Shown here in pieces: positions 39,016-48,562 of a stretch of DNA of 64,000 nt. Origin of the DNA: an uncultured Chloroflexia bacterium (GTDB lineage: Bacteria > Chloroflexota > Anaerolineae > JAAYZQ01); the NCBI GenBank assembly GCA_963700285.1, contig CAVOXA010000009.1:294631-358630 (forward strand), read 5' to 3'. Position 1 is the first letter of the stretch. Each line of letters starts with the position of its first letter. Both the position numbers and the translations under genes were made by a program. The notes beneath the pieces are model-generated. The model was given only the letters and a program-made list of their open reading frames with translations, was not told the origin of the DNA and ran no database searches.

Positions 39016-39079
39016 GGCAGGATTACCGCGGCAGGATTGCCGCGGCAGGACTGCCGTGGCAGGACTGCCATGGCAAGAT
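39016..39079 (+). repeat. 14-bp tandem repeat (about 4.5 copies) in the kinase 5' leader
   Basis: GGCAGGAYTRCCRY at 39016, 39030, 39044, 39058 and 39072, just after TGCTATACT. Confidence 0.85.
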
Positions 39080-39109
39080 CTTGGCCGCAGAAGATGGAGG
39101 AACGATCCC

Positions 39110-40715
39110 TTGCCCGATCGCGCTCGAAGCGCCGAATTGGCCGCGCTGACCTATATTGCCGCCCAGGTGAACTGCACGCAGGATCTGGACGAGATCCTGA
39201 GCGGTGCGCTGGAGACCACCCTGGGCGTGGTCGGCGTGGACGCCGGCGAGATCTTTCTCTTTGATGGCGAGACCGGCGAGTTGGCCCTACATGCCCAGCA
39301 GGGCCTGTCGGAGGCATTCGTCGCCGATGAGGCCATCCTCGGTCCCGGCGAGTGTCTATGCGGCCTATCCGTCGACTCGCAGGAACTGGTTGTGGCCGTC
39401 GATATTGCAGCCCATCCAGCCCGCAGCCGTCCAGCTTGCCTGCGAGAGGGTTTCCGCTCTCTCCTCTGCCTTCCGCTCCTGGCCCGCGGCGAGGTATTGG
39501 GGCTGCTGAACGTGCAGAGCCGTACTACGCGCCAGTTCACGACCGAAGACAAAGAGCTACTGACTGCCATTGGCAATCAGATCGGGATCGCCATCGCAAA
39601 TGCCCAACTGATCGAAGATGCCGAGCAGCGCCGGGCCACTCTGAACAGGGTGATGAACAGTCTGCTGGATGGATTGATCCTGGTCGACCGGCGGGGCAGG
39701 ATCACGTATGCCAATCCCCGTGCTGAAGAGATGCTTGGCCTGTCCGTGGGTACACTGGGAGGCCGGACCCTCGAGGCGGTGGAACAGCGGATCACCGACC
39801 AAGTCGCAGGCTGGGAACAGGTCCGTAGATTGCTCGAGAATGCGGCAGAACATCCTCCGAATACTCCTGCCGTGGAGTTGGTGCTGGCCGCGCCCCAATC
39901 ACATACTCTGCAGGCGCGCCCTTTCCCCATCTATGATTCTGGCGGGGCAAACCTGGGTCCGGGCATTTTGCTACGCGATATCACCCGAGAGAGAGAGCTG
40001 GACGAAATGAAGTCACAACTGCTCTCCACGGTGAGCCATGAACTACGCACCCCGCTGGCCAGCATCAAAGGCTTTGCCACCACCCTCCTGCGCGAGGACG
40101 TACAGTGGGACGAGAAGAGTCGACGCGAGTTTCTGTCAATCATTGACGAGGAAAGCGACCGCCTGTCTGAGCTGATCGGCAATCTGCTCGATATGTCACG
40201 TATTGAGGCTGGAACTCTTCGCGTGGAACCAGAGCCCACCGATTTGAGGCCTATCGTCGAGGAAACCGTGGCCGCGTTCCAGGTCATGACGCACGATCAC
40301 CAATTGCAGGCGGTCACGCCGCCGTGTGCTGCCACTGGTGATGGCTGATCCGCGCCGTATCCGGCAGGTACTGCGAAACCTGGTGGACAATGCGGTCAAG
40401 TACTCACCGAAGGGGGGGGGCATCGGCATTGCCATACGTGTGTCAGAGGAGAACCTGGAAATCTGTGTTACGGACCAGGGCCTGGGCATCGAACCCGACC
40501 ACATGGAGCACATCTTTGACCGATTCTATCAGGTGGATAGCGCCTCAACGAGAAAGGTGGGCGGAAGTGGTCTGGGCTTGTCTATTTGCAGGGCCATCGT
40601 AGAGGCCCATCGTGGGCGTATCTGGGCCAGAAGCCAGCCTGGCATTGGCAGTATCTTCTGTTTCACGCTACCCCATGGAGGAGCACGACCGTGCCTAGAA
40701 GGGCAACCATCCTAG
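39110..40715 (+). CDS. GAF-PAS sensor histidine kinase, frameshifted near 40325
   Basis: SHELRTPL H-box in the first ORF; NLVDNAVKYS, DQGLGI and GSGLGLSI in the second frame. Confidence 0.85.
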
Positions 40716-42094: not shown

Positions 42095-42598
42095 ATGAAG
42101 GCAATGACGAACGAGAATCTGAAGGCAGCCTTGGCCGGTGAGAGCCAGGCCCACATCAAGTACCTGGCCTTTTCAGCGAAGGCGGAAAAGGAAGGCAAAC
42201 CCAATATCGCCCGGCTCTTTGAGGCCATCGCCTATGCTGAGCAGGTCCATGCCACCAACCACTTGAAGGAACTGGGTGGGATTGGCGACACCGTGGCCAA
42301 CCTGCAGTCAGCCATCGATGGTGAGACCTTTGAGGTCGAAGAAATGTACGCGGCCTATCTGCCCGTGGCCGAGTTGCAGGAAGAGAAGGGCGCCAAGCGG
42401 AGCATGACCTACGCAATTGAGGCGGAAAAGATCCATGCGAACATGTACGGTGCTGCCAAGGTAGCCGCCGAGGCAGGCAAAGACATTGACATCCCAGAGG
42501 TCTATATCTGTCCCGTGTGCGGGTTTACCCACATTGGTGAGCCGTCCGAAAAGTGCCCAGTTTGCGGCGCCAAGAAAGATCGGTTCAAAGCCTTCTAG
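42095..42598 (+). CDS. rubrerythrin family protein
   Basis: GESQA, EQVH, GETFE, EKIH; C-terminal CPVCG...CPVCG rubredoxin domain. Confidence 0.95.
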   Translation: MKAMTNENLKAALAGESQAHIKYLAFSAKAEKEGKPNIARLFEAIAYAEQVHATNHLKELGGIGDTVANLQSAIDGETFEVEEMYAAYLPVAELQEEKGAKRSMTYAIEAEKIHANMYGAAKVAAEAGKDIDIPEVYICPVCGFTHIGEPSEKCPVCGAKKDRFKAF

Positions 42599-42754
42599 GA
42601 ACACGAAGGCGGTTGTGCCCAGGCAGTAAAGTAGATCGATGGTCTGGGGCAGTGACGAATGATAAAGGAGGAGTGGCTTTATGGATTCTCCTTTGCCATT
42701 CATTCATGTGTTCACTATCTTACCAGCCCAACGCGAGGTTCTAGGCAAAAATCC

Positions 42755-43873
42755 ATGCAGGTAATCTTTCCCTTCACAGCCCTCGTCGGCCAGGAATCAA
42801 TGAAAACGGCGCTGATCCTCAATGCGATCAGCCCCAAGATCGGCGGCGTACTGATCCGGGGAGAACGCGGTACCGCCAAGTCTACCGCTGCCCGCGCTTT
42901 GGCGGCCTTGCTGCCAGAGATCGACGTCGTCGCTGACTGCCCCTTCAACTGCGATCCCCATCGACCCGAGCGGCTCTGCGACAATTGTCGCGAGCGGGTC
43001 GCCAGTGGCGAGAGCCTGGCGTTCAGCAAGCGCCGGACGCGTTTCGTGGATCTGCCCGTGAGCGCTACCGAGGACCGTGTGGTCGGTACGCTGGACATTG
43101 AGGCGGCCATCAAAACCGGCAAAAAGAAATTTGAGCCAGGCGTCCTGGCTGCAGCGAATCGGAGCCTGCTGTACGTGGACGAAGTAAATCTGCTGGACGA
43201 CCACGTCGTGGACCTCCTCCTCGATTCGGCAGCCATGGGCCGCAATATGATCGAGCGAGAGGGGATCTCTTTTAGCCATCCGTCGCGCTTTATCCTGGTG
43301 GGCACGATGAACCCTGAAGAGGGAGAGTTGCGCCCCCAACTCTTGGACCGCTTTGCTTTGTGCGTTGAAATCAAGGGAATCGGCGCCCATCAGTCCCGTG
43401 TGGAAATCCTGGAACGCACCGTCCAGTTTGAGAGCGATCCAGAGGGCTTTCGCGCCGAGTGGGAGCCCTACGAGGAACAACTGTCCCAGGACATCGCCCG
43501 CGCCAGGGTGGTGCTGCCCACGGTGACCTACGAGTCCCAAGACCTCTATACCATCGCCGAGCTGACCACCAGTTTTGAGGTGGACGGTCACCGGGCTGAC
43601 ATTGTCATTCTCAAAGCTGCCCTGGCCCACGCTGCCTACCGGCTGGCCCGCAATGGCAGGCAGCCCGAGGAAGCAGCCGTCACGATGCTGGACATCCTGG
43701 CCGCGGCCGAACTGGCCCTGGCCCATCGCCTCAAGCGCCAGCCCTTCCAGGATACCGAGAACCGGCTGGATGAGCTTTCGAACCGGCTGGAGGAAGCTCG
43801 CCGGGAGCAACAGGAATCCAGAGCACCCGGTAGCTCCATGACCGAGCCTTCTGCCGGAAAAAAAAAGACGTAA
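42755..43873 (+). CDS. Mg/Co chelatase AAA+ subunit (ChlI-like; N-half of a frameshifted chlD)
   Basis: [36 protein letters not shown]. Confidence 0.92.
43858..43867 (+). other. slippery site A9G (A_AAA_AAG) for -1 frameshift or transcriptional slippage
   Basis: GGA AAA AAA AAG ACG TAA; the -1 frame is open continuously into the VWA ORF. Confidence 0.8.
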
Positions 43874-44880
43874 CTGGTGACCAGCCCCCCCAGCCTAGCG
43901 AGGTAGATACAGATGGCGCGGGCGCGCCCTTGAAAGGCCACGTCGCCGATCCTTTGGGCACGGGCGATGGCCAGAGCGCAGAGATGGTGCCGCCCATCGG
44001 CGACGTATTCCGAACCAGGCGCGTGGAATCGCCCATGGATAGACTGACCCGCCGAGGCGCTGGCAAACGGTCCACCACGCGTACCAGCCGTAAGCGTGGT
44101 CGCTATACCCAGGCCCGGCCCGCCAACGGCGACCTCACGGACATTGCCCTGGATGCCACAATCCGGCAAGCGGCCCTCCAGCAGGTCGAACGAAGAGCTG
44201 AGCAGAAGACAGATTCGATCCCTCTTCTGGCTCCATGCCAGCCAGAGCCACGGCCCAGCGAGCGCCTGACCATTCTACCCGAAGATGTGCAGAAAAAAGT
44301 TCGTGTCCGCCGGGCATCCAACCTGATCCTTTTTGTTGTCGATGCCAGTTGGAGCATGGCCGGCGCTCAACGGATGGAAGCCACCAAGGGGGCGATCATG
44401 TCCCTGCTGGTAGATGCCTATCAGAAGCGGGATATGGTCGGGCTGATCGTTTTTCAGAAGGAGGAGGCCCGGCTGGTACTGCCCTTCACGTCCAGCGTGG
44501 AACTGGCCCAAAGGGCACTCCATCACCTGCCGGTCGGCGGCAAGACTCCCTTGTCAGCCGGACTGATGCTGGCCTACCGGGCTTTTCGCCGGGAACTACG
44601 CCTCCACCGCGAAGCCATGCCGCTGATGATCCTACTGACCGATGGCGCAGGCAATGTATCGCTAACCGAGACGCCCCCCCAGGAAGAAGCACACAAGATT
44701 GCCGACCTGATCCACAAAGATGGCATCCACTCGGTGGTCATCAACATGGAACATGAGGCCTACGACCGGGGGCTGGCCAACCACTTGGCGCAGGCCTTGG
44801 AAGGGCCATGCTATTGCCTGGCTGAACTGAGGGCGGCTGAACTGTACCGTACCGTACGGGAAGAGTTGGACGCGCAATAG
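43867..44880 (+). CDS. chelatase D-subunit C-half (acidic/Pro linker plus VWA domain) in the -1 frame
   Basis: [18 protein letters not shown] (MIDAS), GGKTPL, LLTDG. Confidence 0.88.
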
Positions 44881-45000: not shown

Positions 45001-46500
45001 TTGAGTGAAAACGGCCCACTGAAAATCCTGCTGCTAGCTGCTGAAGTAGTGCCCTTTGCCAAGACCGGCGGATTGGCCGATGTGGCCGGCGCCCTACCCA
45101 AGGCCATCCGGTCTCTGGGCCATGACATTCGGGTAGCCATGCCCCACTATGGCCGCATCGAGACGGGCAGGTTCCAGCTCCAAGAGGCAGTTGCACCCTT
45201 TGAAGTAGCCATGAAACACACCGCCAAGCAGGCCAGTATCTTGCAGGCCAGCCTCGACCCTGACATCCCGGTCTATATGGTAGAGAATGCCGAGTACTTT
45301 GACCGGGAAGGCCTGTACATGTATCCTGACGACGCCGAGCGCTTTATCTTTTTCTGCCGGGCCACGCTGGAGGCGCTCAGGCAGCTAGACTGGCAGCCCG
45401 ACGTAATACACTGCCACGACTGGCACACAGCCATTGTGCCCAATTGGCTGGGTACGATCTATAGAAACGATCCCTTCTTTGCCGATACGGCGACGGTGTA
45501 TACCATCCACAATCTGGCCTATCAGGGGATTTTTGGCTACCGCGTATTAGAGATCGCCGGGGTTGAGGAATGGGGCTTCCTGTATCATCCAGAGATGGCC
45601 GACCTCAACGAGGTGGTGGACATGATGTGGCGAGGCATCTATGCCGCCGACCTGGTGAGCACCGTCAGCGAGACCTATGCCCGGGAGATCTTGACGCCCG
45701 AGTATGGTGAACAACTGGACCCGTTGTTGCGCGATCGCAGAGACCGTTTGTTTGGAATCCTCAATGGTATCGACTATGGCACCAGCGATCCGTCGACGGA
45801 CCCCCATATTGAGACCCAATATGATGTTGCCACCTTGGACCGGAGAGTAGAGAACAAACTCGCCCTGCAGCGAGAAGCCGGGCTGCCTGAGGAACCCGAG
45901 GTACCGCTCATTGGCATCATCTCGCGCTTGACCGACTCGAAAGGCATTGACATCCTGGGCGAGGCCATCGACCATATCCTCGACCTGGGGGTCCAATTCG
46001 TGCTCATGGGCACCGGAGAGCAGCACTACCACAACCTATTTAGCCGCATGGTTGAGGCGTATCCGCAGCAGGCAGCCACCTTTCTGACCTTTAATACACC
46101 ACTGGCCAGCCGCATCTATGCCGGCAGCGACATGTACCTCATGCCCAGCCGCGTCGAGCCTTGCGGCACGAGCCAGATGATCGCTATGCATTACGGCAGT
46201 GTGCCCATCGTGCGGGCAGCCGGAGGCCTGGCAGATACTGTACGGGAGGCCGACCCTGTCACCGGACAGGGCAACGGGTTCGTCTTTGAGGCTTACGACC
46301 GCTGGATGCTCTTTGCGGCCATTGTGCGCGCCGCTGAAACCTTCAAACATCCGACTGTCTGGCGCCAGCTCCAATTGCAGGGCATGCGTACCGATTTCTC
46401 TTGGGAACGGTCCGCGCACAAGTACATCGAACTGTACCGCCGGGCCATGGCCAGCCGTATTCCGCGGCCCGACTTGGAAACCTACCAGGCACAATCATGA
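45001..46500 (+). CDS. glgA: glycogen synthase
   Basis: KTGGLADV, HCHDWHT, TIHNLAYQG, PSRVEPCG, GGLADTV. Confidence 0.97.
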   Translation: MSENGPLKILLLAAEVVPFAKTGGLADVAGALPKAIRSLGHDIRVAMPHYGRIETGRFQLQEAVAPFEVAMKHTAKQASILQASLDPDIPVYMVENAEYFDREGLYMYPDDAERFIFFCRATLEALRQLDWQPDVIHCHDWHTAIVPNWLGTIYRNDPFFADTATVYTIHNLAYQGIFGYRVLEIAGVEEWGFLYHPEMADLNEVVDMMWRGIYAADLVSTVSETYAREILTPEYGEQLDPLLRDRRDRLFGILNGIDYGTSDPSTDPHIETQYDVATLDRRVENKLALQREAGLPEEPEVPLIGIISRLTDSKGIDILGEAIDHILDLGVQFVLMGTGEQHYHNLFSRMVEAYPQQAATFLTFNTPLASRIYAGSDMYLMPSRVEPCGTSQMIAMHYGSVPIVRAAGGLADTVREADPVTGQGNGFVFEAYDRWMLFAAIVRAAETFKHPTVWRQLQLQGMRTDFSWERSAHKYIELYRRAMASRIPRPDLETYQAQS

Positions 46501-46544
46501 CCCAGTTGTAGGTCAAGGTGGGTTGGCGTCAACGGAGGAGGAGA

Positions 46545-47360
46545 ATGGACATTACAGCTATTGGTACAGCGCGGGGCATTTTTGAGATATTCATCCCAGG
46601 TTTGTTCCTCATCTTGAACACCGTGGCTGTAATCTATGCCTTGCTCGGCCGCAACATAGCAGACGACTTTTTTGGAGGGTCAGCTGAGAACTGGGTGATC
46701 TTGGCCGTCTTGTTCTTCCTCAGCTACTTGGCAGGTACGATCATACGTTTGTTCAAAACTGATATAGTTGACACGTGTGCTCGTTGGTGGCTTCGCAACT
46801 GCCCTTGGAGGAGAAGGGCCGCAAAGTCTGGGGATTGTGTCGATGAAGAGTTTCCCTATATCAAGTGGCTTGGAGCTACTCATACTTTTCCTCTGGGAAA
46901 GAGCGCACCAGAAATTCAGGCACTGAATGAGTTCTATGGAAAGCTCTGGGAGCCCCAGGCAGAAGGGATGGACAATCGAGTACAGAAGCTAGCATTCTTC
47001 AATTTTTGCAAGAGCATGATCAATTCCAGATGTGAAAGGTCTGCCAACGAAATCTATACAGCTGAAGCTCTAAGCCGCTTTCTTACGGGCATGTTCTATT
47101 CCTTGATCTTCAGCCTCATGGTGATACTTGCAGGAATATATGCGTCGTTCATCATTGAACTGATCCAGCCTTTGAACGGTTTGATTCAGAGACTATCTCG
47201 TGACGCATTGCCCCTCATATTGACCTTTGGGGCCTTGTTCTTGCTCTATTTGGCGCTAGTCATGGTGATCCTTACGCACTACCGGTTCATCCGCATCAGG
47301 GAAGTCAGCATTGTCTTCAATGCTACGTTCCGATTCCAAGACCTGTTTGAGCCGCACTAG
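46545..47360 (+). CDS. hypothetical membrane protein (about 4 TM), AT-richer than its flanks
   Basis: GGAGGAG RBS; two pairs of TM helices around a soluble domain. Confidence 0.65.
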   Translation: MDITAIGTARGIFEIFIPGLFLILNTVAVIYALLGRNIADDFFGGSAENWVILAVLFFLSYLAGTIIRLFKTDIVDTCARWWLRNCPWRRRAAKSGDCVDEEFPYIKWLGATHTFPLGKSAPEIQALNEFYGKLWEPQAEGMDNRVQKLAFFNFCKSMINSRCERSANEIYTAEALSRFLTGMFYSLIFSLMVILAGIYASFIIELIQPLNGLIQRLSRDALPLILTFGALFLLYLALVMVILTHYRFIRIREVSIVFNATFRFQDLFEPH

Positions 47361-47416: not shown

Positions 47417-48562
47417 ATGAGCCCCGTCCTGAGTATCGTTTCCTTGCCTAATCAGATAGCCAGCTTGTCGGCCGAGGACCGGGCGCGACTCGAGCGCATC
47501 TTTCATGTGAGTGACACCTTGGGCCACACCGCACCGCCAGAAGCGATGCAGCCCTGGATCGATAAGCAGTTCGGGTCTGTCGATGCTGTCCGCCGGCAGC
47601 GGATCATAAAAGTCACCAACCTGGTCACGCTGGAGGGGGCCCTATTCAATGAGTTGCGGTCCAGGAGGCCCATCGAAGCCCCGTCGGGCAGCGAAGAGCT
47701 GGAAGAGATCATCCAGAACAGTAGGGGCGGCTCGTTCTGCCATCCGGAAGAAGGTACACCGGCCGACACCTTTGGCCGCATCAGGGGGCAACATGCCCTC
47801 ACAGCCTCAAACGTGGCCAAGTATGATGGCTGGCACGGCGTCATCGTCTTTGACGAACATCACCCGCTGCGCTTCACACCCGAGCAGGTGGCGGATTACA
47901 TCGATACAGCCCAGCAGTGGGCCCAGAGGGCACACGCGGCTGACCCAGAAGCTTGCTACCCTTTCTTTCTATGGAACTGCCTGTGGAAAGCCGGCGCATC
48001 CATCCTCCACGGCCATGCCCAGATGATCCTGGGCCAGGGCATGCACTATGCCAAGGTCGAGGCTTGGCGGCAGGCGGCCCAACGCTACCAGTTGTCTCAT
48101 GCTACGAGCTATTTTGACGATCTAGTCGCTGTGCACCGGTCCCTAGATCTGGCCATCGAGCACGGCACGGCTACCATTCTTCCCTCACTGACACCCCTGA
48201 AGGAGAAGGAGACACTCATTGTCTCCGATTACCTGGACGATGGACTCAAGTCGGCCATCGCCGTGGTACTTAGCACAATGATAGGACGGCTGGGTGTGCA
48301 GAGCTTTAACGTGGCGCTGTACCAGCCCCCGCTCGCGGCCACGCCGGAAAGCTGGGACGGATTTCCCTGTGTCGCGCGCATCGTGGATCGGGGCAGCCTG
48401 CAAAGCAAGACGGCAGACGTCGCGGCCATGGAACTGTTTGGCCAGAGCATCGTGACGACAGATCCCTTTCGCCTCGTCGACGCACTGCGTGTGACTGCGA
48501 CACGCCATCCCCAAACGGGTATCCAGGGAGGATCAAGTGAAGGTAGCCATTCGCCGCATTGA
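47417..48562 (+). CDS. GalT-like HIT-superfamily nucleotidyltransferase
   Basis: WNCLWKAGASILHGHAQ matches the GalT-type GAS..HxHxQ motif. Confidence 0.75.
   Translation: MSPVLSIVSLPNQIASLSAEDRARLERIFHVSDTLGHTAPPEAMQPWIDKQFGSVDAVRRQRIIKVTNLVTLEGALFNELRSRRPIEAPSGSEELEEIIQNSRGGSFCHPEEGTPADTFGRIRGQHALTASNVAKYDGWHGVIVFDEHHPLRFTPEQVADYIDTAQQWAQRAHAADPEACYPFFLWNCLWKAGASILHGHAQMILGQGMHYAKVEAWRQAAQRYQLSHATSYFDDLVAVHRSLDLAIEHGTATILPSLTPLKEKETLIVSDYLDDGLKSAIAVVLSTMIGRLGVQSFNVALYQPPLAATPESWDGFPCVARIVDRGSLQSKTADVAAMELFGQSIVTTDPFRLVDALRVTATRHPQTGIQGGSSEGSHSPH

Follow-up and report, generated by a model that had tools for sequence, protein, structure and literature searches.

Magnesium chelatase (ChlIDH) and the cobalt chelatase CobN-ChlID both couple an AAA+ motor to a C-terminal integrin-I/VWA domain with a MIDAS, and ChlD uses its VWA domain to bind ChlH in a manner that depends on Mg, as set out in the available portion of PMC6604950. 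In the fs-chlD family, a ChlI-like N-terminal half is followed by a VWA half whose reading frame is shifted by -1 at an A-rich site, so that a single gene with one frameshift gives two products, the longer falling in the range of 500-800 aa. Kuznetsov et al. (2022; PMC9227772, accessible text) describe fs-chlD genes of both -1 and +1 type, name Brevefilum and four other Anaerolineaceae, and define a stage without a large subunit, 'stage 1' (Brevefilum fermentans and Spirochaeta thermophila), whose function they state to be unknown. In the accessible part of Antonov et al. (2013; PMC3711429), chelatase cassettes with 11, 9 and 7 A's gave values of 63, 40 and 10% at the protein level, and a mixed frameshift direction serves as the criterion for slippage. 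The corresponding sections of PMC5009743 class the chelatase site with A_AAA_AAR frameshifting and tie slippage in Thermus thermophilus dnaX to tRNA-Lys(CUU), runs of nine and stops in both non-zero frames. A search of the open-access literature found no assignment of transcriptional slippage to chlD; Antonov 2020 may cover part of this ground.

The gene studied here, at 42755..44880 on the plus strand of the window (the whole 64-kb stretch of DNA analysed), is a member of the fs-chlD family. Both the family and its occurrence in Anaerolineae without a large subunit were published between 2013 and 2022, in agreement with the remark in the preliminary description that frameshifted chlD genes making both subunits were already known. 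Like other members, the gene has a ChlI-like N-terminal half and a VWA C-terminal half in the -1 frame at an A-rich site, with two products. The frame-0 ORF (42755..43873, 372 aa) ends GGA AAA AAA AAG ACG TAA, in which the run of nine A's (A9) occupies 43858..43866 and the stop codon TAA (43871..43873) follows one codon past the run. The -1 frame contains no stop from 43834, across A9, up to the stop codon at 44878-44880, and its 337 codons downstream of the run (43867..44880), of which the first 25 residues were given in the preliminary description, encode an acidic/Pro linker, an Arg-rich segment and a VWA domain. The ORF end and the open -1 frame leading into the VWA domain, as first described, were thus confirmed from the sequence. 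Addition of one A to the run would give a joined product of 708 aa, within the published fs-chlD size range and with the same order of ChlI-like and VWA parts separated by one frameshift.

The N-terminal half matches ChlI-like Pfam families (PF01078, AAA_5 and AAA_lid_2), and the solved structure nearest to the 372 aa ATPase, which would be the short product of A9 mRNA, is ChlI (6l8d, E 1e-101); the C-terminal half matches VWA (PF13519/PF00092), with a domain extent of about 44326-44772. Since the two halves cover positions 1-341 and 380-640 of TIGR02442 (model length 641), the frame break falls in the linker. The catalytic motifs, the MIDAS and a Cys4 motif are close to invariant across the scored orthologs. 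GERGTAKST (42860..42886) is kept in 148/149 of these and LYVDEVN and LLDRF in 147/149 each, the latter two lying intact 3' of the first in this gene; we take the three to be the Walker A, Walker B and Arg-finger motifs, respectively. The DxSxS motif of the MIDAS reads DASWS (44341..44355), within a VDASWSM stretch found in 148/149 orthologs. The Cys4 motif, C62-x3-C66-x8-C75-x2-C78 (42938..42988), is present in 144/149 orthologs, and the aligned segment of cyanobacterial ChlI lacks cysteines. Judged from its sequence pattern, the motif is a candidate Zn or Fe site at which metal binding is possible. Relative to ChlIDH and CobN-ChlID, the locus therefore differs in its extra Cys4 motif, and also in that both products bear the same intact Walker A, Walker B and Arg finger. 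This is the sole I/D-type gene in the whole genome, with no separate chlI. In many relatives there is also a further, distant ChlI-like ATPase of about 40% identity (for example G012:C114:9067-10020), which is lacking here.

As a break at a homopolymer could arise in assembly, one reading is that the true gene is continuous with A10. At least one private 1-nt indel does lie nearby: a 1-nt insertion near 40327 separates the HATPase_c domain of a GAF-PAS-HisKA kinase (39056-40715) from the rest of the protein, and one RNA contig, otherwise identical to the locus, reads A10 at the junction. The frameshift in the kinase (at about 40327) is private to the present assembly; because the kinase is intact in the genome from the same genus (L037), the insertion probably reflects either the assembly or a strain difference. 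The A9 run and its frame break, in contrast, recur with identical run and offset in that same-genus genome, in an independent DNA contig (X4, 1187 nt, 54 substitutions and 0 gaps), in a second RNA contig, in 18 scored loci of the family and in 11 metagenome contigs. A pattern scan of metagenomes returned 40 matches, 28 of them unrelated; the 12 true orthologs all have A9, and in each of the 11 that include a VWA part the offset is -1. Comparison with the same-genus genome also revealed purifying selection on both sides of the break, with synonymous to non-synonymous codon counts of 56:20 in the ATPase half and 61:16 in the VWA half. We accordingly give the assembly-error reading next to no credence and hold with high confidence that the conserved frame break is a real recoding signal, which bears out the original contention that it differs from neighbouring indels in falling at the ATPase/VWA boundary. 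A9 is the only A/T run of seven or more in the window. Since about 5 runs of nine would be expected across the 7.05-Mb genome and 6 occur, the run alone is unremarkable, and it is its placement and conservation that carry significance. Another of the six runs (G000:C15:42481) lies between two overlapping ORFs of 105 and 249 aa, which we presume to be IS-like, making this probably a transposase recoding site.

The gene was found in 220/261 genomes of the class Anaerolineae. From the strongest 150 of the 220 matches, all split genes and 42 of 53 in-frame ones were scored, so that the proportions of split and in-frame genes are shaped by the sampling and are not unbiased. One contig without the D part (L061) and duplicate genomes (L031-L041) were left out, and a locus with an extra upstream break (L018) was excluded from the third-frame, hairpin and tree tests, its run being checked separately. 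The resulting 149 loci, in 42 families, comprise 103 split -1 genes, 4 split +1 genes, one of which has an additional break, and 42 in-frame genes. A run of at least seven A's is present at the junction in 139/149 of the scored Anaerolineae orthologs and in 19/19 of the gene's own family (f1; 17 A9 and 2 A10), so the A-run that had been flagged for a conservation check is indeed conserved. Among the 103 split -1 genes the run is A7 in 16, A8 in 5, A9 in 74 and A10 in 8. A9 in these genes occurs in all three codon phases (43/19/12), and families with runs of nine or more number 12, 14 and 3 per phase. Run length is conserved and codon phase is not.

The frame offset is equally variable. With runs of nine or more, offsets of -1, 0 and +1 are seen in 82, 24 and 3 genes; the offset varies inside 8/32 families while the run persists, and at least 17 changes are required on the tree. 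In family f52 (L063, L080, L085, L148 and L154) all three offsets occur: +1 with A10, -1 with A9 and in frame with A9. By the criterion in the accessible text of PMC3711429, under which an offset that is not conserved indicates slippage, the finding of -1, 0 and +1 genes all with runs of nine or more points to slippage, with the reservation that the three +1 genes (A10, A10 and A12) could be homopolymer errors. The 24 in-frame genes with A9-10 make up 24/42 of the in-frame orthologs. The other state, in-frame without a slip run, is represented by 10 orthologs (L130-L133, L136-L140 and L152, from families f43, f12, f45 and f23), and a second chlI was absent from 5/5 of their genomes tested. The loss of the run in ten orthologs, with no chlI in these five genomes, suggests that some lineages can do without the short form. 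A long form alone without a large subunit is a state absent from the stages laid out in the available text of PMC9227772.

The preliminary description proposed that one gene yields the I and D subunits by a programmed -1 ribosomal frameshift on A_AAA_AAG. The conserved change of frame at the ATPase/VWA boundary upholds the first part of this proposal; the ribosomal mechanism is likely wrong for this gene. Two heptamers are in frame in tandem at the run, A_AAA_AAA then A_AAA_AAG, and the latter with a stop directly after it recalls E. coli dnaX. In frameshifting of the E. coli dnaX type, AAG is weakly read by a sole tRNA-Lys that has no CUU anticodon. The present gene differs from that case: tRNA-Lys(CUU) is present in the genome (ARAGORN, 49 tRNAs), the heptamer is not conserved, there was no upstream Shine-Dalgarno stimulator at A9 (-2.2 kcal/mol), and no 3' RNA structure was found beyond that of shuffled sequences in three windows (fold z +0.7 to +1.6), nor any above shuffles 5' of the run. 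Among the 49 tRNAs, tRNA-Sec was found and tRNA-Lys(UUU) was not, the latter being probably unassembled or interrupted. In-frame A_AAA_AAG occurs in just 48/82 of the split genes with runs of nine or more, and A8 is almost absent in the A_AAA_AAA phase (1/60), though the heptamer alone would permit it.

In favour of the ribosome as the chief source of the long product, through A_AAA_AAA then A_AAA_AAG, stand the two in-frame heptamers, an RNA contig that reads A9, a class of the same gene with A_AAA_AAA and a 3' hairpin (18/21), and the ribosomal treatment of fs-chlD in the accessible portions of PMC9227772, PMC3711429 and PMC5009743. The direction of the break is a further point against slippage, since 103/107 split genes show the -1 offset that ribosomal shifting would be expected to give. 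Moreover, every run of at least nine holds A_AAA_AAA in all phases, so ribosomal shifting is possible throughout. Against it, this mechanism leaves unexplained an excess of stops in the third frame, the in-frame and +1 orthologs that have the run, and an A10 RNA contig. The absence of a hairpin or Shine-Dalgarno sequence at this copy and the presence of tRNA-Lys(CUU) weigh in the same direction. We therefore consider programmed -1 ribosomal frameshifting unlikely as the main route, and think it probable that RNA polymerase slippage on A9 yields a short ATPase and a long ATPase-VWA protein. In this respect the gene departs from the fs-chlD genes of PMC3711429 and PMC9227772, for which the available text describes a ribosomal shift, usually with a downstream structure; here there is none, and signatures of slippage are present instead. 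In-frame A9 genes, a double stop and a division between A9 and A7-plus-hairpin genes were not found in the accessible text of those papers.

The stops of the third frame bear on this choice. A stop within six codons in the third frame is present in 64/82 split genes with runs of nine or more, compared with 27.3/82 expected by synonymous shuffling and 9.3/82 expected from the gene body, and it is the majority state in 18/24 families of such genes. Ribosomes shifting by -1 out of frame 0 never enter the third frame, whereas it is read from transcripts that have gained two A's or lost one, and these stops therefore count for slippage. In the in-frame orthologs with A9-10 (n = 24), the two off-frames are closed in 19 and 16, versus 9.9 and 8.2 expected. 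The A7-8 class has an excess of third-frame stops as well, though a smaller one (9/21 versus 4.8 expected), which counts against slippage. In the gene at 42755..44880 both non-product frames are closed near the run, by TAA at 43871 and by TGA at 43878 (43878..43880), the third-frame stop here having a 14% chance under shuffling. The same-genus genome retains the TGA of the third frame, with its frame-0 stop shifted 11 codons downstream.

Metatranscriptome data gave a hint in the same direction. The site is bridged in 2/5 RNA runs (X2 and X17), and is unbridged in RNA runs X15, X18 and X20 and in DNA runs X1 and X3. The X2 contig (record 14, 185 nt, 0 substitutions, depth 3.1) carries one extra A, giving A10 and a restored frame, and the X17 contig (record 3, 151 nt, depth 2.4) reads A9. 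A mixture of A10 and A9 among RNA contigs is what slippage predicts. These are assembled contigs of low depth; the libraries were made by RT-PCR and have no matched DNA. The A10 contig is therefore only a hint and could stem from RT or PCR slippage or from a strain allele.

Under the polymerase slippage that we favour, RNA polymerase would stutter on A9 and give an mRNA pool of several run lengths. Transcripts with A9 would encode the 372 aa ChlI-like ATPase and those with A10 the 708 aa ATPase-linker-VWA protein, while A8 or A11 transcripts would meet the TGA at 43878 and encode another short product, 374-375 aa in length. Ribosomes shifting to -1 at this run may contribute as well. The closest parallel is dnaX of Thermus thermophilus, which likewise has a run of nine, stops in both non-product frames and a tRNA reading AAG, and which by itself supplies two AAA+ subunits, one short and one long, its homologues in other species relying on the ribosome. 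The two differ in that unslipped mRNA gives the long form in T. thermophilus and the short form here, the arrangement of T. thermophilus being shared by the 24 in-frame orthologs. They are also different genes, with slippage demonstrated in dnaX and inferred in ours.

Another way to obtain two proteins, with no recoding of a single gene, would be for the halves to be separately initiated or translationally coupled, or for the run to vary in phase at the DNA level. A TTG at 43930 and an ATG at 43984 could begin a VWA protein of about 300 aa. No Shine-Dalgarno sequence was found at 6/6 candidate D-frame starts between 43867 and 44050 (best -3.3 kcal/mol), and this test is weak because the genuine I start itself scores just -2.4; the earlier observation that the VWA start has no clear ribosome-binding site therefore holds as an observation and carries little weight as an argument. 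No start is conserved, however: in the 40 of 103 split loci where the linker motif could be located, 24/40 have any start before that motif and 1/40 has a Shine-Dalgarno sequence. The D frame is moreover open back to the run in 106/106 split loci that have one. As to phase variation, poly-A tracts do slip during replication, as noted in the accessible part of PMC3711429, and L024 is an A10 in-frame member of a genus that is otherwise split. Phase variation predicts mixed run lengths in DNA, whereas 12/12 metagenome junctions and 17/19 family loci are A9. We regard this group of explanations as very improbable beside polymerase slippage.

The orthologs with shorter runs tell a different story from those with A9. 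The split A9+ class comprises 82 loci in 24 families, including the gene at 42755..44880, and the split A7-8 class comprises 21 loci in 5 families, in 17/21 of which the run begins as A_AAA_AAA. Hairpins with z<-2 were detected in 13/82 split A9+ genes (control 5) versus 18/21 split A7-8 genes (control 1). From these sequence features, the A7-8-plus-hairpin class looks like a case of ribosomal frameshifting. An A7-8 run with a strong 3' hairpin is seen in L052-L060, L075, L083 and L092 (f42), in L120, L122 and L124 (f4), and in f15 and f40; these hairpins start a few bases past the run and often enclose the frame-0 stop, a classic ribosomal signal. For the contrast between A9 and A7 the tree offers 2 independent pairs with good support, or 5 when all branches are counted, and with so few pairs a tree-based test of A9 against the hairpin and against the third-frame stop gave no significance. 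The tree of the ATPase part largely tracks families, which fits vertical descent. On balance we lean towards a broader reading, in which a near-universal and vertically inherited AAA+/VWA gene of the Anaerolineae has repeatedly swapped recoding machines, using mostly slippage and in a few cases a ribosomal A_AAA_AAA plus hairpin, and encodes an orphan motor with a client other than a chelatase large subunit. The slippage type would then be marked by exactly nine A's in any phase or offset, without a hairpin and with the off-frames closed.

We also sought a large subunit with which the products might act. CobN/ChlH (PF02514) was not found in the gene's own genome (89% complete), nor in 22 further family genomes (0/23), which extends beyond the window the earlier remark that no large subunit is encoded there. 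In the class, PF02514 is present in 18/261 genomes, versus 220/261 for this gene. CbiC and the reaction-centre families, one marker family per pathway, were likewise not found in the 89% complete genome. The locus thus matches fs-chlD stage 1, with no chlH or cobN, no chlorophyll or B12 pathway markers and no separate chlI, and differs from ChlIDH and CobN-ChlID, where a large subunit and pathway exist. On functional grounds alone, the products could still be the I and D subunits of a true Mg- or Co-chelatase with its large subunit encoded in sequence missing from the assembly, a reading that gains from the strong likeness to TIGR02442 and ChlI, the 89% completeness and the presence of a CbiX-family gene. 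The rarity of PF02514 in family and class and the missing CbiC and reaction-centre genes count against it, as does the genome G025, in which cobN adjoins a different I/D pair on C16 and the ortholog of this gene is on C17. The TIGR02030 score of 412 is under the curated cut-off of 467, and the TIGR02442 halves, scored apart, reach 490 and 256, the cut-off of 779 applying to the whole model. We judge a true chelatase improbable, and on this genomic evidence the name 'chelatase' used in the preliminary description is unsupported for this gene.

With no CobN/ChlH found, a chelatase large subunit is an unlikely client. The short and long forms would probably co-assemble into an AAA+ ring, and by analogy with the way ChlD grips ChlH, the MIDAS-VWA domain would grip a client protein in a Mg-dependent manner. 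The motor would more likely remodel or mature another conserved Anaerolineae protein. Across 150 loci and the window, no conserved neighbour hinting at the client emerged, with no real neighbour gene present in more than 6/42 families; the larger neighbourhood clusters were rejected because they consist of the gene under study or of shadow ORFs overlapping it. A rubrerythrin gene upstream (42095-42598) is shared by 19 loci of the gene's own family only, and a glycogen-synthase-like gene (glgA) downstream (45001-46500) by 12 loci in 2 families, which is not class-wide. Further downstream, ORFs at 46518-47360 (280 aa) and 47417-48562 (381 aa) have no Pfam match at E<=0.001. A scan for promoters and terminators, which we do not count as evidence, gave 2 promoter-like sites where 0.9 were expected, one of them at 42693-42721, and no terminator on the plus strand.

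What this analysis adds to the published family is evidence for polymerase slippage and for a split between two signals inside one class. If the slippage reading is true, fs-chlD, usually cited as ribosomal, would be largely a matter of transcriptional slippage in this class, and genes annotated as intact chlD (24/42 in-frame loci) would also make the short subunit. If the gene has indeed exchanged one recoding machine for the other, it would join dnaX as a second example of mechanisms that can replace each other, here visible within one class, and the natural pairs of A9 and A7-plus-hairpin genes are a ready test set. The presence of the gene in 220/261 genomes and of a large subunit in 18/261 points to a housekeeping client, a subject named as unstudied in the available text of PMC9227772.
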